A stretch of DNA of 64,000 nucleotides from a virus (Duplodnaviria > Caudoviricetes), in the IMG/VR virus record IMGVR_UViG_3300028025_003604, positions 1,923-65,922 of that record. One strand, 5' to 3'. The notes under the pieces are model-generated. The model was not told the origin of the DNA. It made no database searches and was given only the letters and a program-made list of their open reading frames with translations. Within the stretch, counting starts at the first letter, position 1. Each line of letters begins with the position of its first letter. The position numbers and the translations under genes were made by a program. Positions 1,281 through 19,251 of the stretch are shown piece after piece.

Positions 1281-1390
1281 TCTCTTATATACTATGAGAA
1301 CTACTATACCCCCGAGCTGCCCACTTTTGGGCAATCAGGCCCGTTTTTAATCCTTTTCCTATTTCGTTTACCCAAGCACGTTAGTAAAAA

Positions 1391-1399
1391 TGTGGATAA
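1391..1399 (-). promoter_or_regulatory. DnaA box (TGTGGATAA on +)
   Basis: Perfect 9-mer ~75 bp upstream of the early promoter. Confidence 0.5.
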
Positions 1400-1472
1400 C
1401 TTTTTATCTCTTACTCTCCCAAGGGTTTGAGCCTGCTAAATCTGTTTAGCAGAGGCCTAATTTAAAAATTTA

Positions 1473-1505
1473 TTTGGAAGCGATTATCCATTGACGTTAG
1501 TTTTG
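1473..1505 (+). promoter_or_regulatory. Bacteroidota housekeeping-sigma early promoter
   Basis: -33 TTTG (1473-1476), 21-nt spacer, -7 TAGTTTTG (1498-1505). Confidence 0.75.
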
Positions 1506-1514
1506 TGTCTCAAT

Positions 1515-1546
1515 TCGGGGATGAAGTTTCCCGATGCTCTTTGAAA
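1515..1546 (+). promoter_or_regulatory. hairpin plus boxA-like antitermination element
   Basis: Hairpin TCGGGGA-TGAAGT-TTCCCGA followed by TGCTCTTTGAAA, resembling rrn boxA (TGCTCTTTAACA). Confidence 0.65.
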
Positions 1547-1694
1547 GGTTGGTTACTGAATTCTGCAAAACGGCAGTGGGAGTAAAGGTGCGACTAGCTT
1601 CGGCGTAAAGTCTAAATGGAACCACATAACAAAAGCCCTCGGGCAAGCCCTACCACACCATAGGCAATGAACAGGATTCGCCTACCACCTTTCG

Positions 1695-1705
1695 GTTCTT
1701 TGAAA
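1695..1705 (+). promoter_or_regulatory. second boxA-like element GTTCTTTGAAA
   Basis: Near-identical to the first copy; follows a stem closed by AAAGGTG/CACCTTT. Confidence 0.6.
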
Positions 1706-1935
1706 TTATCGGCGCGAAAGTTTTACATGCGATGCTCTTCACCGGAGCTAACGATGGACATCGGCCCTGCCCCTTACACGGGAGCAACCCACAAACAAGC
1801 AACACCCCGCTAACCACGGCCTAGTCACTTGCTACCCATCTTACCCCTTACATGTAACACGAGTAACCCACCCATCGCCTTCAGGTCTGATTTATCGTCC
1901 TGATGTTTAGCGTAGTCTTGAGGCTAATGGGTTGG

Positions 1936-1990
1936 ATGGTCTAGCGGTAATAACTCCCGCTACTGATGAGACGCAGAACGTCGAAACCAT
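1936..1990 (+). ncRNA. hammerhead ribozyme HH1 (type III)
   Basis: ATGGTC^TAGCGG-loop-CCGCTA CTGATGA GACG-CAGAA-CGTC GAAA CCAT; full core, three stems, GUC site at 1939-1941. Confidence 0.9.
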
Positions 1991-2001
1991 AATCATACAT
2001 C

Positions 2002-2175
2002 ATGAAAAACTTTATTTCAATCATCAAATTTTACTTATTAATCGCCTTGCTTAACCCATTCACCCTTGCCGGTTTAATTTCCGGCTGCCACGGGTTTACA
2101 TTCTTTGGCTTTGTGGTATCTGCCCTTGCTTGTAGTGTCTTCTTCCTAGGTGGAGGAGTTAAAGCGTTCAAATAA
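2002..2175 (+). CDS. small membrane protein (57 aa)
   Basis: Hand-translated MKNFISIIKFLLLIALLNPFTLAG...; two hydrophobic segments; lies between HH1 and HH2. Confidence 0.7.
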   Translation: MKNFISIIKFYLLIALLNPFTLAGLISGCHGFTFFGFVVSALACSVFFLGGGVKAFK

Positions 2176-2195
2176 TTCCCCCGAGCTGCTCACAA

Positions 2196-2247
2196 GATTA
2201 ACTGATGAGGGTTTAATACCCGAAACATCCTTCGGGATGTCTTAATC
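2196..2247 (+). ncRNA. hammerhead ribozyme HH2 (type I)
   Basis: GATTAA CTGATGA GGGT-TTAAT-ACCC GAAA CATCC-TTCG-GGATG TC^ TTAATC; cleavage after 2241. Confidence 0.95.
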
Positions 2248-2260
2248 AAAAAACACCACC

Positions 2261-2428
2261 ATGAAAGTTGAACTAAAAGAGAGAGAAGTATACGGAAAAG
2301 TGCTTCTGTACCCTAAAAACATTAACGCCTGCATTTTTGCTGATTTAATTGGCAAAAAGACATTCGACCAACTAGACCTCTTCCACATACAACAACTAGG
2401 ATACGAGGTTGAAATCATTAAACTATAA
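2261..2428 (+). CDS. small hypothetical phage protein (55 aa)
   Basis: Hand-translated MKVELKEREVYGKVLLYP...KTF...LGYEVEIIKL; A-rich leader. Confidence 0.75.
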   Translation: MKVELKEREVYGKVLLYPKNINACIFADLIGKKTFDQLDLFHIQQLGYEVEIIKL

Positions 2429-2438
2429 AAGCACTAAC

Positions 2439-2645
2439 ATGTACGCAAAATTATCAATGGTGATTGCATCACACCTAAGCGATGCGCAGCACGACTTTGA
2501 ATCAGGTAATGATAAGCACGGGCACTACCGCTTAAACTTCATCAAATTGCTAGTACTTCAAAACCAAAGTTTAGATAAAGAGGTCAATGAAGAGTATCTG
2601 TGGAAGGTATGGAAAGAGTGCGAAGTTGGGGCTCCAAAAGATTAA
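2439..2645 (+). CDS. hypothetical protein
   Basis: ORF 2409..2645, likely start MYAKLS at 2439; GAT-TAA end forms HH3 stem I. Confidence 0.75.
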   Translation: MYAKLSMVIASHLSDAQHDFESGNDKHGHYRLNFIKLLVLQNQSLDKEVNEEYLWKVWKECEVGAPKD

Positions 2646-2691
2646 CTGATGAGGATTCAATATCCGAAACCTGCTCCGGCAGGTCTTAATC
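2640..2691 (+). ncRNA. hammerhead ribozyme HH3 (type I)
   Basis: GATTAA CTGATGA GGAT-TCAAT-ATCC GAAA CCTGC-TCCG-GCAGG TC^ TTAATC; cleavage after 2685. Confidence 0.95.
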
Positions 2692-2705
2692 AAAAAAATT
2701 TTACC

Positions 2706-3044
2706 ATGGAAACCTTACAAATCAAAAAAATTACCGGCCTAACTGAACTTGAGAAAAAAGTATTAACTGCGCTAGTTGATGGCATGTATGCAGAATGGGG
2801 ATTCAGCGATGTTGGAGCTACCGACCTTTCTGAATCTACCGGCATACCAAATAAGTCTATTCGCGGCGTAATTGGTTCGCTAGTTAAGAAGGGTCTAGTT
2901 TATGTGGATGACCGCACTGACATGTGTGACTACCGCAGCAATGACCCTGCATGGGAGCCCATCATATACCTGCAAAACGATGCCGAAGCATTGGTACCTA
3001 ATTGGCAAGAGCAGATAGGCTTCAAATCTGTTATCGAAGATTAA
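2706..3044 (+). CDS. winged-helix DNA-binding protein
   Basis: Start METLQ at 2706; LTELEKKVL...DLSESTGIPNKSIRGVIGSLVKKGLV HTH pattern. Confidence 0.7.
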   Translation: METLQIKKITGLTELEKKVLTALVDGMYAEWGFSDVGATDLSESTGIPNKSIRGVIGSLVKKGLVYVDDRTDMCDYRSNDPAWEPIIYLQNDAEALVPNWQEQIGFKSVIED

Positions 3045-3088
3045 CTGATGAGACTTAATTAGTCGAAACGCCTTCGGGCGTCTTAATC
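3039..3088 (+). ncRNA. hammerhead ribozyme HH4 (type I)
   Basis: GATTAA CTGATGA GACT-TAATT-AGTC GAAA CGCC-TTCG-GGCG TC^ TTAATC; cleavage after 3082. Confidence 0.95.
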
Positions 3089-3101
3089 AAAATCCAATCC
3101 C

Positions 3102-3338
3102 ATGAATGTTATTTTAGTCTCTCGAGACGGCATACTAGATACGCCGGTACTCGTGAAGCAGAACACCACGGCAGAAGCCACCTTTGAATCCATTGTTCGC
3201 GACCTCCTAGGTGAAGACGCCGATGATATAAACTTCTTTTGCGATACTGCCATCGATAAGGTTAACAACTACCTCAAGCCTTCCGGTATCACCATCTCTT
3301 GGTTTGTCGATATTGACGTAAACAACTATAAAAACTAA
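3102..3338 (+). CDS. hypothetical protein
   Basis: ORF with A/C-rich leader directly after HH4. Confidence 0.75.
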   Translation: MNVILVSRDGILDTPVLVKQNTTAEATFESIVRDLLGEDADDINFFCDTAIDKVNNYLKPSGITISWFVDIDVNNYKN

Positions 3339-3341
3339 ATC

Positions 3342-3413
3342 ATGAAAAGCACAACTACCGCTATCATCATTGTCATTGTCTTCTTGTTAATCACCCTAGC
3401 AGATAACATATGA
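3342..3413 (+). CDS. 23-aa hydrophobic peptide
   Basis: MKSTTTAIIIVIVFLLITLADNI; ATGA overlap with the next ORF. Confidence 0.45.
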   Translation: MKSTTTAIIIVIVFLLITLADNI

Positions 3414-3574
3414 GAAAAGTATATTTTTTCAGCTATCAACTAGCTGATGGGAACGAAATACTCTGCGCTATTAAGACTTGCATATATCCTGAACGGACCA
3501 AAATATGGAAGCGCCTCTTAACCCTTGTTATTAACAGAGAGGACGTAGTAAGTATTAAGTACTCCCTAGAATAG
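3410..3574 (+). CDS. small hypothetical protein (54 aa)
   Basis: Hand-translated MRKVYFFSYQLADG...; fills the gap. Confidence 0.55.
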   Translation: MRKVYFFSYQLADGNEILCAIKTCIYPERTKIWKRLLTLVINREDVVSIKYSLE

Positions 3575-3585
3575 TTTACCCCCGA

Positions 3586-3629
3586 ACTGCCCCCATACCG
3601 ATGGCATCCGGTTCGTGACCGGAGGCAGT
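3586..3629 (+). ncRNA. mini tRNA-like element E1
   Basis: ACTGCC/GGCAGT closing stem, small hairpin CCAT-ACCG-ATGG, T-arm-like TCCGG-TTCGTGA-CCGGA. Confidence 0.65.
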
Positions 3630-3650
3630 CCTAATCAAAATCCAAACCAC

Positions 3651-3917
3651 ATGAACTATCAACAAATCAAAGCCGCTCAGAAGGAGCAGGGCTACGACCA
3701 ATGGCAACACATCATCAACACCGGCCATGCATGGAAGACGGAGGGCGCTATAGGACGCGAGGCAATGCACTTGCTAGAATCCGGCGCATGTATGCTTCCC
3801 AAGACTGCCTTCCAAGACTACTATGGCAACAGAATCCCATCACGTGACGACCTCAAGGCCGGAACTAAAGGGACCTTCCAAAACTCAGTAAACTATTACA
3901 CTAACAATGCTTGGTAA
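3651..3917 (+). CDS. hypothetical phage protein
   Basis: Start MNYQQ at 3651; GHAWKTEGAIGREAMHLLESGAC. Confidence 0.75.
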   Translation: MNYQQIKAAQKEQGYDQWQHIINTGHAWKTEGAIGREAMHLLESGACMLPKTAFQDYYGNRIPSRDDLKAGTKGTFQNSVNYYTNNAW

Positions 3918-3937
3918 CAGGCGCAACTATTAACACT

Positions 3938-4150
3938 ATGGAAAAAGTAACCTTCGAATTTCACCCCTACGTCCAAGACTCTTGGGATTGCATGATTTCA
4001 ATTCACAGAGGGAACGAACTTGTTGTTCAGTACAAATTTCAGGCGCACATTATTGATGGGGATATTCAATTTGACCTTGACCCAGAATATGCTTACAACC
4101 CGCCTCAACGATACCTATCATTTATCACTTCAACCTTATTAAATCGATAA
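3938..4150 (+). CDS. hypothetical protein
   Basis: Likely start MEKVTF. Confidence 0.65.
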   Translation: MEKVTFEFHPYVQDSWDCMISIHRGNELVVQYKFQAHIIDGDIQFDLDPEYAYNPPQRYLSFITSTLLNR

Positions 4151-4154
4151 CACT

Positions 4155-4382
4155 ATGAAAAAGAATCTAACCGCAGAAATGCTATTAAACGAATTGCTTG
4201 ATATGAAAGCAAAGCACTACGACCTGTCTAAAATTGAACTAAGCTATCGTTTCGACCCTGATAGTGACGTAGAACCAATCACCTATGTTGGTGAAGGTCT
4301 CTTCGATGCAGATACTAACAATGTTCTAGAAGAACTTGTATTTATGACCGATGCGTCTGAATACGAAGGAGAGGGAATATAA
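4155..4382 (+). CDS. acidic hypothetical protein
   Basis: ORF in operon context. Confidence 0.7.
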   Translation: MKKNLTAEMLLNELLDMKAKHYDLSKIELSYRFDPDSDVEPITYVGEGLFDADTNNVLEELVFMTDASEYEGEGI

Positions 4383-4391
4383 CCTCCACCC

Positions 4392-4432
4392 AACCTACCG
4401 CCATGGGCGTGGGCTTCGATGCCGAGTAGGTT
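4392..4432 (+). ncRNA. mini tRNA-like element E2 (imperfect)
   Basis: AACCTAC/GTAGGTT 7-bp stem, CGCC-ATG-GGCG hairpin, GGC-TTCGAT-GCC T-like hairpin. Confidence 0.55.
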
Positions 4433-4452
4433 CTCATCAAAACTCAAACAAC

Positions 4453-4614
4453 ATGCAACAACAAGCATCAAAAACACGTAGCCACTTTGTACTATCTCTA
4501 GCTAAAAGTTTCTTAAGAGCCGGAGCATGTGTATGGCTTTACCTAGGCGACTATCAAGTAGCTGCCGGACTATTCTTAATCGCCGAAACCTTCGGTATTC
4601 TAGAAGAACTTTAA
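4453..4614 (+). CDS. small membrane protein
   Basis: Start MQQQASK; HFVLSLAKSFLR...LIAETFGILEEL. Confidence 0.7.
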   Translation: MQQQASKTRSHFVLSLAKSFLRAGACVWLYLGDYQVAAGLFLIAETFGILEEL

Positions 4615-4624
4615 AAACTAAATC

Positions 4625-4819
4625 ATGAGAAACAGAATCCACCCACCAATCTACTCTGTCAAGCCTAGTGGCCTAATCATCAAGCGCTGCAATAAACTGA
4701 GCGCATATGCAAGAAGGATGGAAGTATTGAAGGAACTCGGACTCGACGTAAAGGAATACGCCAAAGAGTGCAAGCTAAGGTCCTTATTCAGGATGCAGGC
4801 TGCAGGTCTTCTAGCATAA
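4625..4819 (+). CDS. hypothetical protein
   Basis: ORF in operon context. Confidence 0.65.
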   Translation: MRNRIHPPIYSVKPSGLIIKRCNKLSAYARRMEVLKELGLDVKEYAKECKLRSLFRMQAAGLLA

Positions 4820-4826
4820 TACCCCC

Positions 4827-4872
4827 GAGCTAGTAGGAATGACCGAAACCGGAGCGATACCGGTACTAGCTC
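4827..4872 (+). ncRNA. mini tRNA-like element E3
   Basis: GAGCTAGT/ACTAGCTC stem, linker, ACCGG-AGCGATA-CCGGT 5-bp stem with 7-nt loop abutting the closing strand. Confidence 0.7.
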
Positions 4873-4890
4873 CTCATTAAAACCTCAAAC

Positions 4891-5112
4891 ATGGATTACC
4901 CTTTAGAACTAAAAAAATATCTAGCTAGTAAGATGGCTAAGGTAGATGTTGAATGCATGGGAGTAGACTTCCAACAAGCATATGAATACCATTTAGCCAA
5001 CGACCCATTTACCCTCCTTGAATATTGGGCCGAATACTTCGGAGCATTTGACGACATGGGCGAAAACTTATTCATGGAGCTAAGCCCTGAGTCTATAGCA
5101 AAAAATAAATAA
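4891..5112 (+). CDS. hypothetical protein
   Basis: ORF directly after E3. Confidence 0.7.
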   Translation: MDYPLELKKYLASKMAKVDVECMGVDFQQAYEYHLANDPFTLLEYWAEYFGAFDDMGENLFMELSPESIAKNK

Positions 5113-5124
5113 GATAGTCCCCCG

Positions 5125-5168
5125 AACTGCGAGGTATGACCGAAGTAGGAGCGAAACCTACCGCAGTT
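5125..5168 (+). ncRNA. mini tRNA-like element E4
   Basis: AACTGCG/CGCAGTT 7 bp, GGT-ATG-ACC, GTAGG-AGCGAAA-CCTAC. Confidence 0.7.
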
Positions 5169-5212
5169 GCTAATCAAAAACTCAAGAGCGAGAGTCCAAA
5201 CGCACCAAACCT

Positions 5213-5557
5213 ATGTCAACTACTACAACATCAACCTTACAGATGCACGTCTTCACATTAGACAACGCACTAAGCTACCTGAAAGAAAATTTACAAACAG
5301 ACACAGACTTCAGCGGTGATAATGGCCCTGAGTTTCTAGATGATGACGCCGATGGATACGATTCAAATTTAGAGTACTACCTAGAAATGTTTTGGTCGAA
5401 GCACAAGCCGAAAGATGAAAAGACCCTGAATAATTTCTTCTTAAAGTTTTTTCAGTTCATGCAGAAGAGGGACCAATACTATTCAAACATTGAGTTCGAC
5501 CTTAAGTTTATTGGCGACCAAATAGTTTTAGCAGTGATGATGGAATGTGATTGCTAG
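5213..5557 (+). CDS. acidic hypothetical protein
   Basis: ORF with AAACCTATG leader. Confidence 0.7.
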   Translation: MSTTTTSTLQMHVFTLDNALSYLKENLQTDTDFSGDNGPEFLDDDADGYDSNLEYYLEMFWSKHKPKDEKTLNNFFLKFFQFMQKRDQYYSNIEFDLKFIGDQIVLAVMMECDC

Positions 5558-5564
5558 AACCCCT

Positions 5565-5608
5565 GAGCCGAGAGAGTGGATAAGGCAGAGCGATACTGCC
5601 CTCGGTTC
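5565..5608 (+). ncRNA. mini tRNA-like element E5
   Basis: GAGCCGAG/CTCGGTTC, D-loop-like linker AGAGTGGATAA, GGCAG-AGCGATA-CTGCC. Confidence 0.7.
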
Positions 5609-5623
5609 CTAAATCCCAAACCT

Positions 5624-6169
5624 ATGAGCCTACAAGACGCGGTAATCACCGCAGAAAAAAATGGTGGAGTCTCTTACAACCTTCACCATGGGTACATGAA
5701 TCCTGAGACCGGATACATGGTATCCCTAGCAGGAAGAGAGAGGCAGTCGCCATCACTCACCTATCACAACGTCCTCGGTTTTGTAAACGACAACATTGAA
5801 GCATTCGAGCCCACAACCTTCTTAGGCCTATGGCAGGAAGAAGGGACGTGGATAATGGATGTGTCTTTATGCATCCCGACACTAGCGACTGCGCTGCGGG
5901 TTGCGGAATCAAATGGCCAACGTGCCATCTACGACAATGCTAACAAAAAATCTATATACCTAAACCCTAACCGCATGGAAGAGCTAATCGAACAAATCAA
6001 GCAGCATGACTTTTGGTACATGATGTCCGAAGACTCAAGAGTATTTGACCAAGGTAAAGAGACCCAGAAATCGATCGAAGAGGGGCTTAAAAATTACCCT
6101 AAAGAAGAGGTCCTGAATAATCTACCCGAACACCTTCACGAATTTATAAAATCTATCTATGGCGCATAA
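5624..6169 (+). CDS. two-domain early protein; N-terminal domain possibly SAM-lyase-like
   Basis: Start MSLQDA; GYMVS...GLW...DVS...A...Q.AIYD pattern; second domain begins at in-frame ATG 5975. Confidence 0.55.
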   Translation: MSLQDAVITAEKNGGVSYNLHHGYMNPETGYMVSLAGRERQSPSLTYHNVLGFVNDNIEAFEPTTFLGLWQEEGTWIMDVSLCIPTLATALRVAESNGQRAIYDNANKKSIYLNPNRMEELIEQIKQHDFWYMMSEDSRVFDQGKETQKSIEEGLKNYPKEEVLNNLPEHLHEFIKSIYGA

Positions 6170-6377
6170 ACTAACAGGCGTAGAGCTCTACAATAGCGAG
6201 CTCAAGCGCAAGACAAAAGTATACGACGTTGCAAACAAAAAACTAATCGCTGAATTCGAAAGCGTGTGGGCTGCCTCCAACTACACCGGAGTCAAATGTA
6301 GTTACATCACCCAGTGTATGAGTAAGAAGTACCGCTCACATACAAATCGCCTAGGCATAACAATCACCTTCAGATGA
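6159..6377 (+). CDS. stand-alone NUMOD1-like DNA-binding protein
   Basis: VYD...LIAEFESVWAASNYTGV...ITQC motif. Confidence 0.65.
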   Translation: MAHKLTGVELYNSELKRKTKVYDVANKKLIAEFESVWAASNYTGVKCSYITQCMSKKYRSHTNRLGITITFR

Positions 6378-6462
6378 TAACACTACTAATCGTTCCTATT
6401 GCACTTGCTATCCTTATTGGTAACAATGCACTTAGTCCTGAATCTAATTTAGACTAACCCCC

Positions 6463-6509
6463 GAACCGGAAACCTAACGAGGTTATGGTATTCGCTCTAC
6501 CTCCGGTTC
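6463..6509 (+). ncRNA. mini tRNA-like element E6
   Basis: GAACCGGA/TCCGGTTC, AACCT-AACG-AGGTT, GGTA-TTCGCTC-TACC. Confidence 0.6.
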
Positions 6510-6522
6510 CTAAACCTACTTT

Positions 6523-6624
6523 ATGAAAAAGTTTAATTGGACCTTCTTAATTGCATGGACAACTATCCTCACCATAACATACATGTTGTGGTCATTCATC
6601 TTTAAACTAATATCCTACATATGA
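6523..6624 (+). CDS. 33-aa membrane peptide
   Basis: MKKFNWTFLIAWTTILTITYMLWSFIFKLISYI; ATGA overlap with the next gene. Confidence 0.5.
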   Translation: MKKFNWTFLIAWTTILTITYMLWSFIFKLISYI

Positions 6625-6860
6625 AAAGTACATTTCAACAAGTGATGGATGCAATAAATAACGGCGAAAAATTCTCATGGAATTTTAACGGCCTTACTGC
6701 ATTCAGAAACACCGACAGGTTAGTTCATGAAATACCTAACCCAACCGAGGCGTCCATTGGATGGATACTTCAAGAGTTCTGCGTTAAAGCATTATACGAT
6801 GCTGATTTATTAATCTCCTTCGAGCCATCACCTGAAGGGTTAAAAATATATTACAAATGA
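6621..6860 (+). CDS. hypothetical protein
   Basis: ORF in operon context. Confidence 0.65.
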   Translation: MKSTFQQVMDAINNGEKFSWNFNGLTAFRNTDRLVHEIPNPTEASIGWILQEFCVKALYDADLLISFEPSPEGLKIYYK

Positions 6861-6956
6861 GAACTACCTACCCAACAGAAACCCTATCATTCAACGATTG
6901 GATTATCTACATCCATAAAGAAAACATCCGTATTAGAATTCAAAAACTAAACCACT

Positions 6957-7148
6957 ATGAACAAAATCTCGGCAGCAAAAAAAGTGTTTCACACTATCAA
7001 CGAAGAATTGGACAAGGTACTATTGGGGGAAGAAAGTTCCCGCCGATTGGTTGTGCAGAAATTGAAATTGATTAATGAGGAACTATCCGATGCAGTAATT
7101 GACCTATTGAAAAAAAATGTAACCTATGAACAAGAGCGAAGTATTTAA
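6957..7148 (+). CDS. hypothetical protein
   Basis: ORF with AAACCACTATG leader. Confidence 0.6.
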   Translation: MNKISAAKKVFHTINEELDKVLLGEESSRRLVVQKLKLINEELSDAVIDLLKKNVTYEQERSI

Positions 7149-7476
7149 TGGCCTATGTGAGTATGCAGTTGAAGTTACCGGTATCGATATAAGGTACGCC
7201 AAAGGAAGACGTGAAGAGTATGTAAGGCTCAGGGCCGCTATCATGGTTATCCTTATGAACTACTACGGAGTCACCACTACATTGGCCGGACACTTTTTTA
7301 ATCGCGACCACACCACGGCAGTACACCACAAAGCAAATCACCCATGGCGATATAAGTCCGACGATGAATACGCCTATCTGTATGATGAGTTGGTGAAGCA
7401 CGTTTTACTATGTAAAAGAAATCAAGTAGACCTAGATGTACAAGAGGTACTCGAGTACATTAAATTAATTGGTTAG
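7126..7476 (+). CDS. DnaA C-terminal (domain IV)-like HTH protein
   Basis: R...VRLRAAIM.IL...TTTLAGHFFNRDHTTAVH matches the DnaA RDHTTV signature. Confidence 0.75.
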   Translation: MNKSEVFNGLCEYAVEVTGIDIRYAKGRREEYVRLRAAIMVILMNYYGVTTTLAGHFFNRDHTTAVHHKANHPWRYKSDDEYAYLYDELVKHVLLCKRNQVDLDVQEVLEYIKLIG

Positions 7477-7482
7477 TGAATA

Positions 7483-7571
7483 ATGCGGGTAGCTTAATGG
7501 TCACAATGGAAGTGACCCTTGAGGGAGGAAAGCGCTTAAATGAGATGTGGGTTCGATTCCCATCCCGCGTT
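7483..7571 (+). ncRNA. aberrant tRNA-like RNA (expanded D-loop, stub anticodon arm)
   Basis: ATGCGGG/CCCGCGT acceptor, GCTT/AAGC D-stem, GTGGG-TTCGATT-CCCAT T-arm. Confidence 0.65.
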
Positions 7572-7797
7572 CATAAATATAAAAGTTGGCGAGGTGAGAT
7601 ACCTTGATTACACCTGAGCAGGATGGTGGCCAATGGATGCTGCTAGTTATTAAGCCTATAGGATGAAATACCCTTGTACCGATGCCTTGCGGTTGGGTTA
7701 GACAAAGTTTTCTTGCGTTGCGGGTTCTATTAGGCGTTTTTTCATATCCCGTTAAAGAAAGCAAAGGGGCTTATGGTTGTGCCAGAACAACCAACAT

Positions 7798-7891
7798 AGT
7801 CAGGTCGCTCAAATTTTGGGAGCACATGCATCATTGTGTGTTCAATACAAGTCTGCTTAGGCTTGTGCAGGTTCGAATCCTGTCCTGACTA
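7798..7891 (+). ncRNA. tRNA-like RNA with non-canonical anticodon loop and long variable arm
   Basis: AGTCAGG/CCTGACT acceptor, GCTC/GAGC D-stem, GCAGG-TTCGAAT-CCTGT T-arm. Confidence 0.65.
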
Positions 7892-7976
7892 CAAACTTAT
7901 GCACAGAGTTATTCATGTAAGTATTTATACTGAATGTAACGCTCTTGCATAAACGTAGATTTGTAAAAAACAACCT

Positions 7977-8201
7977 ATGAACCAAACAACAAACCATTCG
8001 TCTGAAACGCTTAATATAACATGTGCTTATCCAAAAACTCAAACTGAATTTTCGTATGTAAGCGCTTCTCACCATAGTGTAATCGTTATAGTAAGCTCAC
8101 TATATCAAAAGCTATCAGACAAAGAAAAGTTGGAAATGCTTTCTAAATTAAATGATTGGACTTACAATGAAGCACTTAAAATTTTTAACCAAACCCAATA
8201 A
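7977..8201 (+). CDS. hypothetical protein
   Basis: ORF with AACCTATG leader. Confidence 0.6.
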   Translation: MNQTTNHSSETLNITCAYPKTQTEFSYVSASHHSVIVIVSSLYQKLSDKEKLEMLSKLNDWTYNEALKIFNQTQ

Positions 8202-8204
8202 TAT

Positions 8205-8453
8205 ATGGAACCACAAACCATCGAGCAACCATGCTCCCAAGAGCCTATCGCCTCAGTAGAGTATACTCCAACAAAGCAGGAGGCATTACGGCAGTATGAA
8301 ATTAGAATAGAATTCCTATCAAGAGGATGTATTGTTCGTGTAGGCTGTAAGTCTATACCTTTTGAGAGTGTAGATGCAGCAATGAAATGCTTAAGCGAGT
8401 ATGTAAAAGACCCTATCACCAAAGAAAAAGAGTGGGTGAAAATCTTAAATTAA
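8205..8453 (+). CDS. hypothetical phage protein
   Basis: IEFLSRGCIVRVGCKSIPF. Confidence 0.7.
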   Translation: MEPQTIEQPCSQEPIASVEYTPTKQEALRQYEIRIEFLSRGCIVRVGCKSIPFESVDAAMKCLSEYVKDPITKEKEWVKILN

Positions 8454-8460
8454 AGATGTT

Positions 8461-8591
8461 AGTCAGGTGGCGGAATTGATAGACGCTAAGTTAAGTTTAC
8501 ACACGAGATGCGACCTCATTAAAAGCTATAACGATGAGTTTAAATTGGTTCAGAGAACCACCTCTTGCAGGTTCGAATCCTGCCCTGACTA
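8461..8591 (+). ncRNA. tRNA-Leu-like frame with a ~80-nt insert replacing the anticodon/variable domain
   Basis: AGTCAGG TG GCGGAATTGATAGACGC ... GCAGG-TTCGAAT-CCTGC CCTGACT A. Confidence 0.65.
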
Positions 8592-8604
8592 CAAAAAGTA
8601 GCGT

Positions 8605-9225
8605 ATGAAATTAAATTCCAACATTCCTAGCTTTAAGGCGCTAGTAAAAAAATCCTACTTCACGAAGGACGCCAACGATAGTAACGAATACTACAACGTG
8701 TATGTCTTCGGCCTTCAGTCAGTATCCGGTAAGATAGTCACGTTCCATGTACTAACCGACTCCGGTATGCTAAGGAGCAGGGTGCCATTGTCTGAGATAT
8801 ATACCAAGGTACCAACGGGTGACATACCATTTAACTACAAGCAGCTATGGGATTGCTTTAGTGAGAATGTATCCGTAGTTGAGTATGACTTCCTTGCATT
8901 TCACAGAGCTCAAGTAGTACTGAGAGATGGCAGTAAAGTATGGGCCACGTATGTATTCACTATTGATTGGTTCAACAACCCATATAGTGATGAACCTTCC
9001 GACTATAAGTGCGGCCACGTGCTAGAATCGGATGATGGCTACTTGTTATGTATGCCGAACAACAGAATCTTTTGGAAGGATTCTAATTGGGTAACGAAAA
9101 GTTTACCGGAGGACCTGAAGCAGTTCAAGGTAGACACCGACCTTCCTTCTGTTGAAAACCAATCGGACCGATGGGTGGCAGAGGATACCAATTCATTTTA
9201 TTACGACATAATACAAGAGCTATGA
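8605..9225 (+). CDS. conserved hypothetical phage protein
   Basis: LWDCFS...YVFTIDW...PNNRIFWKD motifs recalled from aquatic phages; function unknown. Confidence 0.7.
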   Translation: MKLNSNIPSFKALVKKSYFTKDANDSNEYYNVYVFGLQSVSGKIVTFHVLTDSGMLRSRVPLSEIYTKVPTGDIPFNYKQLWDCFSENVSVVEYDFLAFHRAQVVLRDGSKVWATYVFTIDWFNNPYSDEPSDYKCGHVLESDDGYLLCMPNNRIFWKDSNWVTKSLPEDLKQFKVDTDLPSVENQSDRWVAEDTNSFYYDIIQEL

Positions 9226-9569
9226 AAACCGCAATGCAAGAATTAATCTTTCACATAGCATATATGGAAAGAAGAAAGTATCAAGATGAGCAAACACAGA
9301 TACTTGGAGGTATGAATGATTGTATTATGTATGATGCCATCGTTATTCAAAATAGAATCATTGAAGAATTAACTAAAGAGTATTCTGAATATCTTGAAAA
9401 AGAAAAGGAGCAGATAGTAAATGATTTTGAAAATGGTTACAAGGCCTGCGATTTAGATGAAGCATTGGAGATAAATAAAACAATGTTTAGCGGAGAAAGG
9501 TATTACGAACAAACCTATAAACAATACGGCTTAGATAATGAGGCTAGACAAATTTTAAATAACCTATAA
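9222..9569 (+). CDS. hypothetical protein (MKTAMQEL / EKEKEQI small-gene family)
   Basis: Likely start at 9222; AT-rich. Confidence 0.65.
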   Translation: MKTAMQELIFHIAYMERRKYQDEQTQILGGMNDCIMYDAIVIQNRIIEELTKEYSEYLEKEKEQIVNDFENGYKACDLDEALEINKTMFSGERYYEQTYKQYGLDNEARQILNNL

Positions 9570-9583
9570 CCAAAAAAATAACT

Positions 9584-9775
9584 ATGAACACTATGACCGT
9601 AATACTAGGATTAGGTACATTATTGGTTGGCTTTGTATTAGGATTTACTTTGCACTTTTTCATATCAAAAATGGAAGATGCAAAAACTTATACTAATGGT
9701 TTTAGAGATGGGATGCAAGCCGAGTTTAAAATAATTTATGAAATAATATTAAAATCAAATAACCAAAACAAATAA
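9584..9775 (+). CDS. small membrane protein
   Basis: N-terminal hydrophobic helix. Confidence 0.6.
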   Translation: MNTMTVILGLGTLLVGFVLGFTLHFFISKMEDAKTYTNGFRDGMQAEFKIIYEIILKSNNQNK

Positions 9776-9925
9776 CCAATGAAAAAAACAAAAATAACAT
9801 TTCAATTCCTTACATATGACCAACGAAGAGCTAAAATTATTGCTAATCTAAATAGTATAAAAGTAGACCCTATTAAAAGCCAAGTAACAACAACAGGTGT
9901 ATGGACTCCAAAAACTAATTAACCT

Positions 9926-10162
9926 ATGAAACTATATACAGAAGAACAAGTAAGAAAAGCTATTAGAGTAGCAGGACAATTAGTATGGGAAGATGAAGAA
10001 ATATTTGCTTCATTGCCATCAATAGAACTACCAAGTGATGAGGAGATAGAGAATAATGCTTATACAGATAGAATAGTAGATGATTGGAAGCATGAACAAC
10101 AAATTGGGTTTGAAATAGGTGCTAAATGGATGAAAGAACAAATACTTAACCAAAAAAAATAA
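9926..10162 (+). CDS. hypothetical protein (KLYTEEQV / ELPSDEEI family)
   Basis: AACCTATG leader; modular small-protein motifs. Confidence 0.65.
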   Translation: MKLYTEEQVRKAIRVAGQLVWEDEEIFASLPSIELPSDEEIENNAYTDRIVDDWKHEQQIGFEIGAKWMKEQILNQKK

Positions 10163-10165
10163 CCT

Positions 10166-10426
10166 ATGACACCACAAGAAAAAGCAACAGAATTAGTAGA
10201 AAAATTTAAGCCTTATGTAAATGGATATGTTGGTAGCTCAATGTTAACTAACACAGAATATCCAGAATCAATTTTAAGAAAGGCTAAAGAATGTGCAAGA
10301 ATAGTAGCAAACGAGATGATTGACAGATTAACATGGCATACAGGTGCAAGTGATTTAGGCAATACAATTATTGCTGAAGATATTGAATATTGGTATGAAG
10401 TGTTACAATCAATCAAATATAACTAA
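10166..10426 (+). CDS. hypothetical protein (MTPQEKA.EL family)
   Basis: AACCTATG leader; AKECA...YWYEV motif. Confidence 0.65.
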   Translation: MTPQEKATELVEKFKPYVNGYVGSSMLTNTEYPESILRKAKECARIVANEMIDRLTWHTGASDLGNTIIAEDIEYWYEVLQSIKYN

Positions 10427-10438
10427 ACCCAATAACCT

Positions 10439-10780
10439 ATGAAAATAGTAACAAACGAAAATGGACTATCTCTTGAAATAGTAAGAGACTATGTGCAAGC
10501 AGATGGGGAAGACTACTCACCAATGCTCGGAGGGGATGACTCAAATCCATCTTGGGAAGAGTATTTGGATGACTATAAAGAAGAGTTTAAGCCACATATT
10601 CTCCTACTGAAAAAATCGATCGAGGAAAATGGCCTTGTAGGATATACAGGGCAAGATGCCGATGACCTTTATTTTAAATTTTCAGATGGCAATGTTATGG
10701 GCTTTAGTTGGAGAGGATGGGGTGACCTAATGCAAGCCATTGTAAACAAGAATGAAGGCTATATGGCCTATTATATGTAA
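10439..10780 (+). CDS. hypothetical protein
   Basis: FSWRGWGDLMQA...YMAYY. Confidence 0.7.
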   Translation: MKIVTNENGLSLEIVRDYVQADGEDYSPMLGGDDSNPSWEEYLDDYKEEFKPHILLLKKSIEENGLVGYTGQDADDLYFKFSDGNVMGFSWRGWGDLMQAIVNKNEGYMAYYM

Positions 10781-10794
10781 CCTAAATCTACCCT

Positions 10795-10989
10795 ATGTCA
10801 GACATCACCAAATGCAGCGGGCAAGGTTGCCCGTTTAAAGAAAGTTGCTACCGATTTACTGCTCCCGCAGGAGATTTACAATCCTACTTCGTAGACCCTC
10901 CATTGGATGGGGACAATTGCGATATGTATTGGGGTCCCAATGGGGAGTCCATATGGAACCAATTGAAAGACGTGGTGGGTGAATCATAA
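10795..10989 (+). CDS. small Cys-rich protein
   Basis: MSDITKC...CPFKESCYRF...C. Confidence 0.7.
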   Translation: MSDITKCSGQGCPFKESCYRFTAPAGDLQSYFVDPPLDGDNCDMYWGPNGESIWNQLKDVVGES

Positions 10990-11138
10990 TGTGCGTTATA
11001 ATGCACATTGGGATGTGCTTTTATCCCTTATAATGCACATTAAGGGGTGCATCACAAATAGAAATATATTTCCAATTGTTTATTTTTTACCCGTAATTGG
11101 TAGTATAACTACCAACATTTAGAAATATACTTCCAATT
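10985..11138. repeat. cluster of short palindromes and dif-like cores
   Basis: AATGTGCGTTATAATGCACATT, TTATAATGCACATT x2, TAGAAATATAyTTCCAATT x2, TTGGTAGT-ATA-ACTACCAA. Confidence 0.65.
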
Positions 11139-11253
11139 TTGGCGCCATTCTGTTACGTGGTTTGGCGTATCTTACCCTTACTTTGTGACACGCAGAGTTG
11201 CTTTTGATTTACAAAAGCGCACTAGCACAACCCGTTTTCGACCCTGAAAATGC

Positions 11254-11547
11254 GTGTCAGAATTGTTATCAATATTGTTAATATTGTTTGCATTCATCAG
11301 TAAATCAACTATATTTATGGGGTCGATGAGTAATCCGGTATCATGCAGCAAGTTATTTTGCCTATGATTATCAATTAATTAACACCGTTTGTGTCAGAAT
11401 TCCGTGTCAGTTTTGTGCGGAATTTGAGCAAAAGGCTTCATTAAAACGTAGTAAAATTAACTATTGCCAAAGATTCTGACACACATTTTTTCAGCCCCTC
11501 CTGATGTGTTTTCCAGAGGTTGTGCATAACCGGACTATCCCATCGAC
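11254..11547. other. putative attP / integrase arm-site region
   Basis: GTGTCAG repeats at 11254, 11391, 11404 and inverted at 11476-11482; outer imperfect inverted repeat 11322-11347 / 11523-11547; immediately upstream of the integrase. Confidence 0.55.
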
Positions 11548-11583
11548 AAGTAAATATATCTTGTCACTTCAAAACTCAAAGCA

Positions 11584-12885
11584 ATGACTATTTCGTTTTA
11601 CCAACGCGGCGCCACCATCTACTGCCGTGTACACCATGGCACTGACATGGTCCGTATCTCTACCGGTATAAAGGTTCCCCCTTACATCAGGTTCGCCAAG
11701 GACAGATTCCTAGGAGACACTACCGAGGCCGCATCCCTTAACGCAGATTTGCATAGGCAAAAGGCTGTCATTAACGAGCTATACGCAGCCAATAGAGGTA
11801 ACCTATACAAGGTCAAGGAGGCTTACTCTACCCCCGAGCTCGTGGTCGATTATGAAGAGGAGAACTACGATTTAGTGAACCTCTGCGAGAGGTATATGTC
11901 AAGCATCATGTCCGGCGAGATTAAGACCCGTCAGAAGAAGAAGTTCAGGGTGTCATCCATAAAGGGGTACCAATTCCCCGTTAACGTCCTTACCCAATTC
12001 TCCCTTATCCATGGGAGTATTGACCTTAGTGAGTTCGTATTGGACAACAAGAGCCTCAAGGAAAAGCAGGTCATCACCGATAGGTTCATGGCATACTTCG
12101 ACAAGTTTATGGACTATATGATTGACTGCGAACTTCAGATTAACACAAGGCGCGAGTGTGTGAATGTTATCTGCATTGTCATCAACTACTTCAGGGATAA
12201 GCTATTCTTAAACGTACCCAAGATTCAAAGGTTGGGCGTTCAGGATAGTCCTATCGTCATCTTGCAACCTGAATTCCTTAAGAAGTTCGTGATGGATGAG
12301 CATCGTTTATACAAAGGTTTCTCCCCCGAGCATAGGTACATGTGGGAGATGATTGCCACCATGTTGGTGACCTCTTTCAGAATATCCGACGCAGTGTTGC
12401 TGACCAAAAATGATTTCATTATAAAAAACGAGGAGGTGTTCTTGGTAAAAGAGAATCAGAAAACCGGAGAGGATACCGAAATGCCCCTGCCGAAGGTCCT
12501 CACAGACGTCTATATGGAAAACCTAGCTAGACACCGGTCGATCTACACGCCTATTGGCCCCAAGGATAAGCTCGGGTACTTTAGAAAGAAGATGAGAGAG
12601 TTCCTCGCCATGTATCCAGAGATGCATGAGATGGTCACCGTGAAGAAGGCTGACATTCGTGGTAACAAGATCCCTATCACGAAGCGTATGTACGAATGGG
12701 TACACCCGCATATGCTACGGAAGACGGCGATCACTACTATGTTGATCAACAATGTTAGTCCTGACCACGTGAAGTTTGCTTCTGGTCACCGGCCCAACTC
12801 GAACGCCTTTAATAGGTACGTTGGTTTTGTAGACCGGCATTACAAGAGTCAGATCAACGACTACCAGAAGAAAATGTTTAGTTAA
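11584..12885 (+). CDS. int: tyrosine recombinase / phage integrase
   Basis: N-terminal arm-binding-like region, FRISD (R), KT (K), HMLRKT (HxxR), SGH, Y. Confidence 0.9.
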   Translation: MTISFYQRGATIYCRVHHGTDMVRISTGIKVPPYIRFAKDRFLGDTTEAASLNADLHRQKAVINELYAANRGNLYKVKEAYSTPELVVDYEEENYDLVNLCERYMSSIMSGEIKTRQKKKFRVSSIKGYQFPVNVLTQFSLIHGSIDLSEFVLDNKSLKEKQVITDRFMAYFDKFMDYMIDCELQINTRRECVNVICIVINYFRDKLFLNVPKIQRLGVQDSPIVILQPEFLKKFVMDEHRLYKGFSPEHRYMWEMIATMLVTSFRISDAVLLTKNDFIIKNEEVFLVKENQKTGEDTEMPLPKVLTDVYMENLARHRSIYTPIGPKDKLGYFRKKMREFLAMYPEMHEMVTVKKADIRGNKIPITKRMYEWVHPHMLRKTAITTMLINNVSPDHVKFASGHRPNSNAFNRYVGFVDRHYKSQINDYQKKMFS

Positions 12886-12890
12886 TTAAT

Positions 12891-12913
12891 AAGGCCCCCG
12901 ATCTGGGGGCTTT
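12891..12913 (+). terminator. intrinsic terminator after int
   Basis: GCCCCC-GATCT-GGGGGC followed by TTT. Confidence 0.7.
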
Positions 12914-12927
12914 TAAATTCCCACCCT

Positions 12928-13113
12928 ATGATATATGTAAACGGAGAAATTAAATTTAGTCAGGACATATCGCCACTGGCAGAATACGATGATGAGAAGA
13001 TGGAAGAGTTTATGCGAGAGTTTCAGGGGTTCATGGACCTGTACGCCATCACCCGCATCGATCTCTCTATCGATCCATATAAGTATATGCAACACAAAAA
13101 AGAAATGAGATGA
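12928..13113 (+). CDS. hypothetical protein
   Basis: CCCACCCTATG leader, shared with the gene at 20712. Confidence 0.6.
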   Translation: MIYVNGEIKFSQDISPLAEYDDEKMEEFMREFQGFMDLYAITRIDLSIDPYKYMQHKKEMR

Positions 13114-13301
13114 TAATTAAAGTAATGTACGACGACGACGTTGTTATCTTTCACGAGGGCAAAAGACTTGGCGCCATTGACTATGATACCTTTTGTCTGC
13201 AAGTATTATCGCCACGTCAATTTAGGCGTCTAGAAAAAGATCCAGATGTTAGAGTATGGGATGTACGTAAATTAGAGCTGGTCAATGCGCTACTTAGTTA
13301 G
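13110..13301 (+). CDS. hypothetical protein
   Basis: ATGA coupling to the previous ORF. Confidence 0.6.
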   Translation: MIIKVMYDDDVVIFHEGKRLGAIDYDTFCLQVLSPRQFRRLEKDPDVRVWDVRKLELVNALLS

Positions 13302-13619
13302 TTTGTCGATTATCCTTTTTAGTCGATCGTTCTCCTCTCTTAGTTGTTTGAGCTCTGAATCCAAATTTCTTTTGTCTGTCTTCTCTCCATCAATTAGATA
13401 GTTATAATCAACGTTGAGTTTCTGTTTAAGTATTCTAAGAACAGAATAATTAGGGGTGTAAAGACCTTGTTCGATAGCTCCTATAGATCCACTGGCCAAC
13501 CCTACTAATTTACCCATATCGGCCTGAGTTAATCTATGATCTAAACGAATTTCTCTAAATCTTTTGTTTATGTCTGAGTAGTCGGTCGGTTCCTTCTCTG
13601 TTGATTTCTTTAGACGCAT
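13290..13619 (-). CDS. XRE-family HTH repressor
   Basis: RFREIR...LTQADMGKLVG...IGAIEQG...P...V.YNYLIDG; divergent from the replication operon. Confidence 0.85.
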   Translation of the reverse strand: MRLKKSTEKEPTDYSDINKRFREIRLDHRLTQADMGKLVGLASGSIGAIEQGLYTPNYSVLRILKQKLNVDYNYLIDGEKTDKRNLDSELKQLREENDRLKRIIDKLTK

Positions 13620-13718
13620 GATGTAAATCTAATATATTTTTTATCATGTGCAAAACGTTGTCAATAACATTAACTCTCTTTTATAGAGTATTAGTATCTT
13701 TATTAGAGAATATATTTT

Positions 13719-13949
13719 ATGAAAGTATCCTATGACTATTCCAAGGACATTATGCTGATCGATGGCGTGGAGTACCCGCTCCGTCCTTACAGAAAGTGGC
13801 TATTGGAATTCCATGAAAGCCTATGTACTGGGCACTTTATCAAGGCAATACGAACCTTGGATAAGGTAAAGTACACCTACGACTGGGACACCATCTACTT
13901 CAAAGCTGGCCAGTACGAATTCTTAAATCAATACTTAAAAACTATATGA
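13719..13949 (+). CDS. hypothetical protein
   Basis: First gene divergent from the repressor. Confidence 0.65.
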   Translation: MKVSYDYSKDIMLIDGVEYPLRPYRKWLLEFHESLCTGHFIKAIRTLDKVKYTYDWDTIYFKAGQYEFLNQYLKTI

Positions 13950-14731
13950 CCTACCTACAATCCCTCCTTGAAAACTTAAGGAAAGAAATCCCCTATCAAT
14001 GGCGTGTCCAATCCCGTAACAAGGACAAGACTAAAGCCATCTGCTCTGCGTACATAGATGCGAGAGACGTAATGAATACTCTAGACAAGTACTGCGAATA
14101 TGGTTGGCAGACTGATGTCAAGGAGTTAGCTGGTTTTATTTTCTACGGAATTGGGATTGAGATCCCAGAGTTTAATCCAGAAGGTAAACATACAGGATTT
14201 ACTACCACCCTGTGGAGATGGGATACAGGCGCAAGGATCGAAGATAATGAGAAGGATAATATGTATGAGCAAGCTGGTAAATCAGCAGCCTCAGATGCCC
14301 TTAAAAGAGCTGCGGTTCAGTGGGGTGTTGGTCGTTTCCTTTATGACCTACCTACCGTTACTCTCCCTTGTGATCAATACGGCAATGTCGTAGATGAGAA
14401 GGGTGCCAGAGTATGGGATCTTACAGAACATATCAATAACAAAAAGACTAAGGTTAAGTCCCCCGAGCCGGCCAAGGCTCCTAAACCTGCAGAGTCATTC
14501 AGAGATGTAATACACGCTGTAGTTAAAGGTGCAATAGATGTTCCTACCCAAAAGGCTGCAGAGGTTACTAGCGATGAGAAGCCAGTGCTTACTCCAGAGA
14601 AGCTGGACGCCATGTTGAATTTTATCAAGGAAGGTAAGATCGAACAGGTAGAACAAGCAATGGAAAAGTATAAGCTAAATCTCGCTCAGAAGACTACGCT
14701 CAACGCCCTTATCAAACAATCCAAAAAGTAA
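13946..14731 (+). CDS. Rad52/Sak-like ssDNA annealing recombinase
   Basis: AYIDARDVMNTLD...KSAASDALKRAAVQWGVGRFLY. Confidence 0.85.
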   Translation: MTYLQSLLENLRKEIPYQWRVQSRNKDKTKAICSAYIDARDVMNTLDKYCEYGWQTDVKELAGFIFYGIGIEIPEFNPEGKHTGFTTTLWRWDTGARIEDNEKDNMYEQAGKSAASDALKRAAVQWGVGRFLYDLPTVTLPCDQYGNVVDEKGARVWDLTEHINNKKTKVKSPEPAKAPKPAESFRDVIHAVVKGAIDVPTQKAAEVTSDEKPVLTPEKLDAMLNFIKEGKIEQVEQAMEKYKLNLAQKTTLNALIKQSKK

Positions 14732-14733
14732 AT

Positions 14734-15729: not shown

Positions 15730-15734
15730 AACCT

Positions 15735-16413: not shown

Positions 16414-16454
16414 ATACTCACGCAAAATTTTAAACTATATAAAAAACTCGACGA

Positions 16455-19246: not shown

Positions 19247-19251
19247 CCCCA

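Follow-up and report, generated by a model that had tools for sequence, protein, structure and literature searches.

The DNA analysed here (the window) is a stretch of 64,000 nucleotides (nt) representing bases 1923–65922 of virus record IMGVR_UViG_3300028025_003604, a sequence of 65,922 base pairs (bp) whose two ends repeat over 127 bp. Positions 1473–1989 of the window appear to hold the promoter and the untranslated leader of a rightward early operon, in which host Nus factors acting at a boxA element would shield the early transcript from Rho, and a self-cleaving ribozyme would free the leader RNA. We place the probability of this reading at roughly 0.5, and on our analysis an N-independent antitermination leader in the style of the ribosomal RNA (rrn) operons is the best-supported interpretation of the region. 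The evidence consists of motifs conserved among related phages, of covariation at the RNA level, of the identity of the phage boxA with that of Bacteroidota rrn operons, and of the exchange of one ribozyme for an unrelated one where the leader ends. Simple motif counts establish none of the features, and the case is built on comparison with relatives.

An initial annotation of the window had listed a Bacteroidota promoter, a hairpin, two boxA elements, an intervening domain closed by AAAGGTG and CACCTTT, and a cut by a ribozyme (HH1) at 1941, and all of these were located at the coordinates claimed for them. Comparison supports part of its interpretation, namely the type of promoter, the rrn-type boxA and release of the leader by a ribozyme; two boxA elements and a size of about 430 nt are not general, and the closing helix is not supported.

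Homologous leaders

The leader proved to be conserved. Seventeen homologous leaders belonging to 12 phage lineages were gathered through searches at the protein level, for which the queries were the primase/helicase and the 108-amino-acid (aa) open reading frame (ORF) upstream of the leader, DNA searches of the resulting records, conserved-block patterns, and fetched upstream stretches. The lineages are the window itself, L129/L185/L194, L104/L142/L205, L099, L083/L236 (G002), L012 (G003), L094/L096 (G007), L085 (G005), L246 (G008), L247 (G010), L248 (G011) and L250/L249 (G004/G012). The closest relatives, L129, L185 and L194, share 95–97% identity with the window in the core leader.

When metagenomes were scanned with a leader pattern, 118 stretches were returned and all were screened; seven were judged real, and the remaining 111, which were without the conserved loop, boxA and ribozyme, were rejected as chance matches. 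The same approach with 185,579 species genomes gave two matches, both attributable to chance in coding sequence, and no prophage copy or named host was found among them. Searches of deposited phage genomes with blastn and tblastn gave no match, and no Rfam family matched the leader body or the longer G008, G010 and G011 leaders.

The proposed length of about 430 nt is appropriate for the window alone, the –7 box and the ribozyme core being about 290–550 nt apart in the relatives. That the leader is free of ORFs is nearly right: it is overlapped on the + strand by one 48-aa ORF with an ATG start (1667–1813), which begins within an insertion specific to the window, and on the minus strand by two ORFs of 49 and 55 aa.

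Promoter and host phylum

Housekeeping promoters of the Bacteroidota have a –33 TTTG and a –7 TAnnTTTG motif with 19–21 nt between them. Both are present on the + strand at 1473–1505, TTTG at 1473–1476 and TAGTTTTG at 1498–1505, with a gap of 21 nt which lies inside the expected range, and the putative promoter is an exact match. Transcription would presumably start at about 1511–1515. The pattern is not significant by count, with three occurrences in the window versus 2.33 expected and 35 of 100 shuffles reaching three. An alignment of seven promoters (A5) shows no variation in the ATTTGG and TA..TTTG columns, in contrast to a variable 21-nt spacer, and exact TTTG-N21-TAnnTTTG precedes boxA in 11 of the 17 homologous leaders.

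A Shine-Dalgarno-like tetramer was found in only one of 32 ORF upstream regions, which are 49% A and 9% G. Promoters of this type and a scarcity of Shine-Dalgarno motifs are both Bacteroidota traits; from the conserved promoter and the near-absence of such motifs the host phylum is likely to be Bacteroidota.

Two DnaA-box-like sites lie in this region. TGTGGATAA at 1391–1399, about 100 nt upstream of the promoter, is a perfect complement of the DnaA box, and TTATCCA occurs at 1484–1490 inside the promoter spacer. Such sites recur in L129, L194, L099 (as TTATCCACA), L104 and G008; G002, G003 and G007 have AATCCACATTTTGCGGATAA instead.

boxA elements

A hairpin of seven pairs (1515–1534, + strand) is followed immediately on its 3' side by the first boxA-like element, TGCTCTTTGAAA (1535–1546), exactly as annotated. 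Its counterpart in the alignment is the only boxA that L129 and L194 have. The second, GTTCTTTGAAA (1695–1705, + strand), is homologous to the single boxA of most relatives. Judged by eye, the 5' hairpin is retained with changed pairs in L129 and L194, and a hairpin also precedes boxA in G005, G008, G011 and G007; in several lineages 0–3 nt separate the end of the hairpin from the boxA-like element. The order in rrn leaders is boxB then boxA, and the phage leader likewise has a hairpin then boxA. A quick, not rigorous, fold of rrn leaders placed a hairpin within about 13 nt upstream of boxA in most of 10 loci.

All 12 lineages carry a boxA-like G[GCU]UCUU[UA] near the 5' end of the leader, and in the 12-sequence alignment of the core leader (A3) columns G7 and T9–G14 (G, TCTTTG) are invariant. 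In the 11 of 17 leaders with an exact promoter, boxA begins 19–53 nt after the –7 box. Both GCTCTTTGAAA at 1536 and GTTCTTTGAAA at 1695 fit the boxA core, which is GYUCUUU with a purine and then an A behind it.

For comparison with the host, 16S loci were taken from 20 genomes of the phylum to which a metagenome-assembled genome titled Bacteroidetes belongs; the comparison holds at the level of the phylum only. In these Bacteroidota-phylum genomes GTTCTTTGA is present in the 16S–23S spacer of 16 of 20 loci and 78–140 nt upstream of 16S in 11 of 20, five of the nine loci without a leader boxA having less than 360 nt of upstream sequence. The phage element is the rrn boxA of the sampled genomes, a comparison that the annotation had suggested. 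According to PMC5725501 the gamma-proteobacterial boxA consensus is GYTCTTTAANA, from which the phage boxA differs solely at position 8, where it has G as do Bacteroidota rrn operons. Recognition by NusB–NusE is described as covering 8 nt of boxA (PMC3177189). Judged by the alignments, no other 5' feature of the leader is conserved as well as the boxA-like element, which is identical to the rrn boxA core of the host phylum.

The inserted module

Compared with L129, L185 and L194 the window has 159 extra bases (1547–1705), which consist of a structured module (1547–1694, + strand; conserved core GGTGCGnCT...AGnCTAAATGGAAC) and the second copy of boxA. The module is therefore flanked by an 11-nt direct repeat. 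In the three relatives there is one hairpin and one boxA, and directly after it comes what in the window stands behind boxA 2. Two boxA elements with a domain between them are thus present as annotated, but they are not general: the arrangement occurs in three of the 12 lineages, the others being the distant G007 (with L096) and G005 leaders. Scanning with the module core pattern recovered only G005, G007 and the near-identical L096, and G008 and G011, which are relatives of G005, are without the module.

The GnCT/AGnC helix of the module shows one compensatory change, and the module has no match in Rfam. AAAGGTG (1584–1590) and CACCTTT (1686–1692) are exact complements, and had been taken for the closing helix of this domain; that helix, although possible, is not supported, since the minimum-free-energy fold pairs 1688–1694 with 1543–1549 rather than with 1584–1590, and the three module homologues, too few in themselves to choose between alternative pairings, do not conserve it. 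We also considered whether the central module was derived from the sampled rrn leaders and rejected this, the boxA 11-mer alone being held in common. A search of viral contigs for two exact boxA copies 135–165 nt apart gave one match, a chance occurrence in coding sequence.

Structure of the leader RNA

The consensus fold of the core leader, computed from 12 sequences, contains 43 pairs after two implausible ones were dropped. In it 95.7% of cells can pair, versus 82.2% in shuffled alignments and 28–43.5% in slid controls, and 22 pairs show changes on both sides versus 12.0 in shuffles, none of 500 shuffles reaching 22. To judge from this covariation the core leader is a structured RNA under selection at the RNA level.

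The segment that follows the second boxA (1706–1793, + strand) is conserved and includes an invariant G..G.GAAA (1711–1719) and a hairpin formed by CGGCCCUGC (1762–1770) with GCAACCCACA (1784–1793). Overlapping its end is a C-rich, G-poor tract (1760–1890, + strand; 40% C, 15% G) which is among the top windows of the 64 kb for C over G. No consensus pairs fall in alignment columns 129–220, which make up most of this tract, and its composition is kept in 11 of the 12 aligned leaders, the exception being G003. It agrees with what is looked for in a Rho utilization (rut) site, namely at least 80 nt of C-rich, G-poor, unstructured sequence, and so resembles in composition what one would expect of a putative Rho-loading site.

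Beyond the tract is a three-helix junction (1870–1932, + strand) in which ACCCAUCGC would pair with GCG...AUGGGU; it is supported by covariation, and its arms are a long hairpin with a conserved loop, UCUGAUUUAUCGU, and a short one, UAGUC-UUGA-GGCUA. The complement of this 13-nt loop has no other occurrence in the window. The middle of the leader is modular, since the G005, G008, G010, G011 and G004 leaders carry different, longer middle domains. The conserved junction together with the modular middle would argue that the freed leader RNA is more than a spacer, and the junction domain and the optional 159-nt module, neither of which has an Rfam family, are candidates for new RNA motifs.

A segment of about 25–39 nt (CCCCGCTAACCACGGCCTAGTCAC...) is found in the C-rich tract of the window (1805–1829), on the 5' side of boxA in L104 (3586–3624), and in both places in L142 and L205. 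Its distribution looks like module shuffling or duplication within leaders.

Terminal ribozyme

The leader ends in HH1, a type III hammerhead (1937–1989, + strand) with a core, CTGATGAG...CGAAA, at 1963–1986, a cleavable GUC at 1939–1941, and a predicted cut after C1941. Its match to Rfam Hammerhead_3 (26.4 bits, E 0.052) is under the gathering score of 48.5; the leader hammerheads of relatives score 33.4–44.3 bits (E 2e-6 to 0.002). Changes on both sides are seen in five of six pairs of stem I and three of four of stem II, and stem III, which is open, covaries by eye (UGGU/ACCA, GGUGU/ACACC, GUGUGU/ACACAC).

A putative self-cleaving ribozyme closes the leader in all 12 lineages. In 10 of these it is a type III hammerhead and in two a twister-P1, at 517–581 in L012 (47.5 bits, E 1.4e-9) and at 11411–11472 in L250 (47.9 bits, E 1.2e-9), both under the Rfam gathering score of 67.2. 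The L012 twister begins 13 nt after the GAGG of the junction and would presumably cut about 17 nt after it; the cut of the window hammerhead is predicted 18 nt after GAGG. Since two unrelated ribozymes occupy one position, and the ribozyme lies nearly whole on the mRNA side, it is the cut and a defined 3' end of the leader that are conserved. Release of the leader by self-cleavage, as originally proposed for HH1, is strongly indicated by this replacement at a matching position in two lineages, and the exchange is unusually clean comparative evidence that selection keeps the cut.

Two of the hammerheads have peculiarities. That of G002 (L083, about 7415–7450) has the core CCGAUGA instead of CUGAUGA, which may slow or abolish cleavage. 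G007 (L094, about 1860–1925) has a second CTGATGAG about 30 nt upstream of the hammerhead core, which may be left over from an earlier ribozyme or have arisen by chance.

Occurrence in RNA libraries

Contigs from four RNA libraries belonging to four studies, in which DNA was possibly present, match the window at 95–99% identity within 1695–1958. They cover 1695–1922, 1735–1922, 1711–1859, 1722–1859, 1830–1909 and 1711–1958. Little else of 1300–3300 lies under such contigs, the uncovered parts being no evidence of absence. The contigs lend weak support to accumulation of the leader, and the fact that contigs of two studies stop at 1922 hints, weakly at most, that there is a 3' end close to the site of cleavage.

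Proposed mechanism and alternatives

In the reading that we favor, a host sigma factor would direct transcription to start near 1511, and the rrn-type boxA (GYUCUUUGA) would be exposed in the RNA within the first ~25–50 nt. The host NusB–S10 dimer would bind to it and, with NusA, NusG and SuhB, would convert RNA polymerase to a Rho-resistant form, as at rrn leaders. Protection would extend across the next ~400 nt of untranslated RNA, including the ~130-nt C-rich, G-poor, unstructured Rho-loading tract, and into a downstream operon that would be cut repeatedly by intergenic ribozymes, uncoupling translation from transcription. Such protection would be needed because the leader is untranslated and contains a rut-like tract and because the operon is cut by ribozymes. 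Cleavage after C1941 would then leave a leader with a 2',3'-cyclic-phosphate 3' end just past the three-helix domain, and the first mRNA would keep a 5'-OH, with the folded ribozyme capping it. The leader of the window would differ in bearing the extra, optional 159-nt module with its own boxA copy.

Several observations weigh against this reading. The fold energy of the whole leader is no better than that of shuffled sequence (z = +0.70), and six of the 17 leaders (G002-type, G003, G007, G010 and G011) are without a consensus promoter by the pattern used above. Position 8 of boxA is G, U, C or A across the G005-like clade and G004, and boxA is GUUCUUA in G010 and GGUCUUU in G002; in E. coli, as stated in PMC5725501, single changes at five positions abolish boxA function. 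GYTCTTTGA is over-represented genome-wide, with 10 copies versus 1.38 expected. Of the eight copies outside the leader seven, all but that at 43766, were compared with ORFs: the one at 24473 is read as coding (V-F-F-D-K), and six lie inside ORFs of at least 150 aa by coordinates; the excess looks to be largely a coding-sequence effect, and motif counts carry no weight since most of the copies are inside ORFs. One RNA-library contig, X20, a variant without the module, also covers 1410–1489, upstream of the proposed start, and reflects either DNA carry-over, upstream read-through or a wrong start site. The restriction of the RNA contigs to the leader may reflect conservation rather than abundance, since they derive from relatives of 95–99% identity with differing flanking genes. 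Lastly, self-cleavage breaks the tether that the transcript gives to boxA, and we assume by analogy with co-transcriptional processing of rRNA that the modified polymerase persists.

The leader might instead be mainly an early non-coding RNA (ncRNA) of the phage that acts in trans, with promoter, boxA and ribozyme serving as its expression chassis and with the junction, the 13-nt loop and the C-rich tract acting on a host target, for instance through titration of Rho or of some other RNA-binding or defence protein. We regard this as possible but doubtful. The middle domains are modular between lineages and both ends constant, the junction domain covaries, either type of ribozyme stays mostly on the mRNA side and gives a clean 3' end about 17–18 nt past the junction, and the RNA-library contigs are confined to the leader; against this, no target came to light, the conserved loop has its complement nowhere else in the window, no Rfam family matches, and the contig evidence is confounded by sequence conservation. 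The idea moreover extends the boxA reading and does not exclude it. One could, again tentatively, treat promoter, boxA and terminal ribozyme as a constant cassette into which structured ncRNA cargo is exchanged, yielding an abundant early ncRNA that acts in trans on the host. Shuffling between lineages would involve the three-helix junction and the C-rich tract, along with the 159-nt GGUGCG...CUAAAUGGAAC module and the larger domains that the G005/G008 clade carries; the product, with its cyclic-phosphate 3' end, could be a decoy for Rho or for RNA-sensing defence, and the Nus complex loaded at boxA might chaperone the folding of such ncRNAs and of the downstream ribozymes, as it does for rRNA.

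Three further explanations appear less probable to us. That the leader is a Rho-dependent attenuator or timing switch, in which the C-rich tract would stop most transcripts and boxA or a phage factor on the structured domains would set their passage, is unlikely. It would account for a conserved rut-like tract downstream of boxA, an order also seen in lambda, where nutR is followed by the rut sites of tR1, and winged helix-turn-helix-type regulators are encoded beside the leader (954–1280 and 2706–3044); yet no switch regulator was identified, there being no antiterminator among the 17 proteins scanned against PHROGs and nine against Pfam, and rrn-type boxA is constitutive where it has been studied. 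We consider it improbable as well that the conserved GUUCUUU is part of the leader fold or the site of some other protein and resembles boxA by coincidence. The variation at position 8, the G010 and G002 variants and the frequency of the 9-mer in coding sequence of this genome speak for coincidence, and boxA 1 can pair with a downstream segment in the fold of the three module sequences; in the 12-sequence consensus, however, the boxA columns are unpaired save for two implausible pairs to the hammerhead core, which were discarded, and the element, more conserved than any other 5' feature, agrees over 9 nt with the rrn boxA of the host phylum and lies near the 5' end of the transcript as do known boxA elements. 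That the conservation belongs to an element acting as DNA, for instance an origin of replication or an operator region containing DnaA-box-like sites, seems to us very improbable: although TGTGGATAA (1391–1399) and TTATCCA (1484–1490) recur in relatives, they are upstream of or within the promoter and outside the leader body, the compensatory changes in 22 pairs point to selection on RNA structure, and ribozymes are strand-specific RNA elements.

Genome context and other elements

Among the proteins of the window PHROGs identified a portal, large terminase, primase/helicase, integrase, Erf-like annealing protein and RecE-like exonuclease. Genes from ~2000 to 22000 are on the + strand and the structural genes on the minus strand. 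The leader stands at the head of the + strand block, directly after the 108-aa ORF (954–1280), which closes with a terminator-like hairpin. The product of this ORF is winged-helix-like, with a weak DUF4364 match, and it is kept as the neighbor of the leader in most lineages. The fourth early ORF (2706–3044) specifies a TrmB-type winged helix-turn-helix protein, and the two are candidate regulators of the leader promoter.

Three type I hammerheads are located between small early ORFs, at 2194–2250, 2638–2694 and 3037–3093 (also placed at 2202, 2646 and 3045), the third matching Rfam Hammerhead_1 with 23.5 bits (E 0.072). Each is followed by UUAAUCAAAA... and ATG, such that the downstream mRNAs would share a short A-rich 5' end. 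Five other intergenic elements (3577–3640, 4820–4880, 5118–5180, 5561–5625 and 6457–6520) take positions of the hammerhead type and have no match in Rfam. They follow a common plan, consisting of CCCCCGA, a helix of 5–6 bp, an asymmetric loop (often AUGACCGAA), a hairpin with an AGCGAUA-like loop, the return strand, a (U)CCUAAUC-like sequence, an A-rich run and ATG. They could represent an undescribed self-cleaving or processing motif.

The motif CCCCGARCYG is present in 16 copies versus 0.11 expected, on the + strand at 1310, 2179, 3580, 5120, 6459, 14461, 42130, 47910 and 53484 and on the minus strand at 15125, 17326, 21299, 22720, 40692, 58475 and 60017. Some copies are internal to ORFs; those of the early operon and the one after the 108-aa ORF come directly behind stop codons, as they do in relatives. 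A phage protein may recognize the motif as a DNA site, or the motif may belong to a processing signal.

The early region also contains a match to Rfam tRNA (7483–7571, 35 bits) with an insertion of 28 nt in the D-loop region and, at 7798–7892, a sequence that ARAGORN reports as "tRNA-???" with a two-base anticodon. On the minus strand 24557–33151 is an ORF of 2864 aa, whose only PHROGs match (phrog_3170, unknown function) covers residues 757–926.

Comparison with known systems

Antitermination through boxA and the Nus factors is textbook knowledge for rRNA operons and lambdoid phages, and a few untranslated RNAs of bacteria have recently been added to these. [quoted passage not shown] In rrn operons boxA precedes both 16S and 23S; in the window and two other lineages two boxA copies flank a structured RNA domain. 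The phage leader differs in heading a protein-coding operon and in that it would be removed by a self-cleaving ribozyme and not by RNase III, and no boxC-like conserved element was identified in the phage leaders.

With the nutL and nutR sites of lambda, which combine boxA, boxB and the N protein, it shares a boxA of an early operon close to the promoter followed by a rut-like sequence. The boxA of lambda is shorter and weaker, whereas that of the phage agrees with the rrn consensus in full. A boxB hairpin of the lambda type has a GNRA-like loop and lies 3' of boxA; no clear one is seen in the phage leader, which shows only the invariant G..G.GAAA, 6–15 nt after boxA, and a weak predicted helix of three pairs (87.9% of cells paired). 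Nor was an N-like protein found among the 26 proteins scanned (17 with PHROGs, nine with Pfam), N proteins being short and divergent and many small early ORFs lying outside the scan. The RNA-only antiterminators, put of phage HK022 and the EAR element, are comparable in being structured leader RNAs that might act on the transcribing polymerase; no likeness in sequence or structure to either was seen, and neither matched in the Rfam searches.

As in the 5' untranslated region of suhB and the leaders of CRISPR arrays, boxA stands here ahead of an untranslated or poorly translated RNA, where it would block Rho. Stringer et al. reportedly dealt with boxA outside rRNA in 2020. What sets the present leader apart is the context of a Bacteroidota phage and the coupling of boxA to a conserved structured leader and to release by a ribozyme. 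Targets of boxA beyond rRNA are also described in PMC5725501. In the literature searched we met with no boxA leader in a Bacteroidota phage and no boxA leader ended by a ribozyme, though the supplements of Perreault 2011 (Dataset S1) and Baniulyte 2017, which lay beyond the search, could bear on this.

Should our reading be correct, a phage family outside the Proteobacteria would have copied the rrn boxA of its host without a recognizable N/boxB system. It would also offer a concrete reason why ribozyme-rich phage operons can exist, for cutting of a transcript uncouples ribosomes from polymerase and should invite Rho. Perreault et al. (2011; PMC3088659) describe hammerheads flanking prophage genes and HHphage of haloviruses HF1 and HF2; in HF2 a hammerhead variant precedes by 13 nt the first gene that an early polycistronic transcript carries, and a 5' end has been mapped to within 3 nt of the cleavage site. 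There, as would be the case here, self-cleaving ribozymes split long phage transcripts into gene-length pieces. The difference is that in the phages examined here the first ribozyme closes a conserved boxA leader of ~300–550 nt, and that hammerhead and twister have been exchanged at one position.

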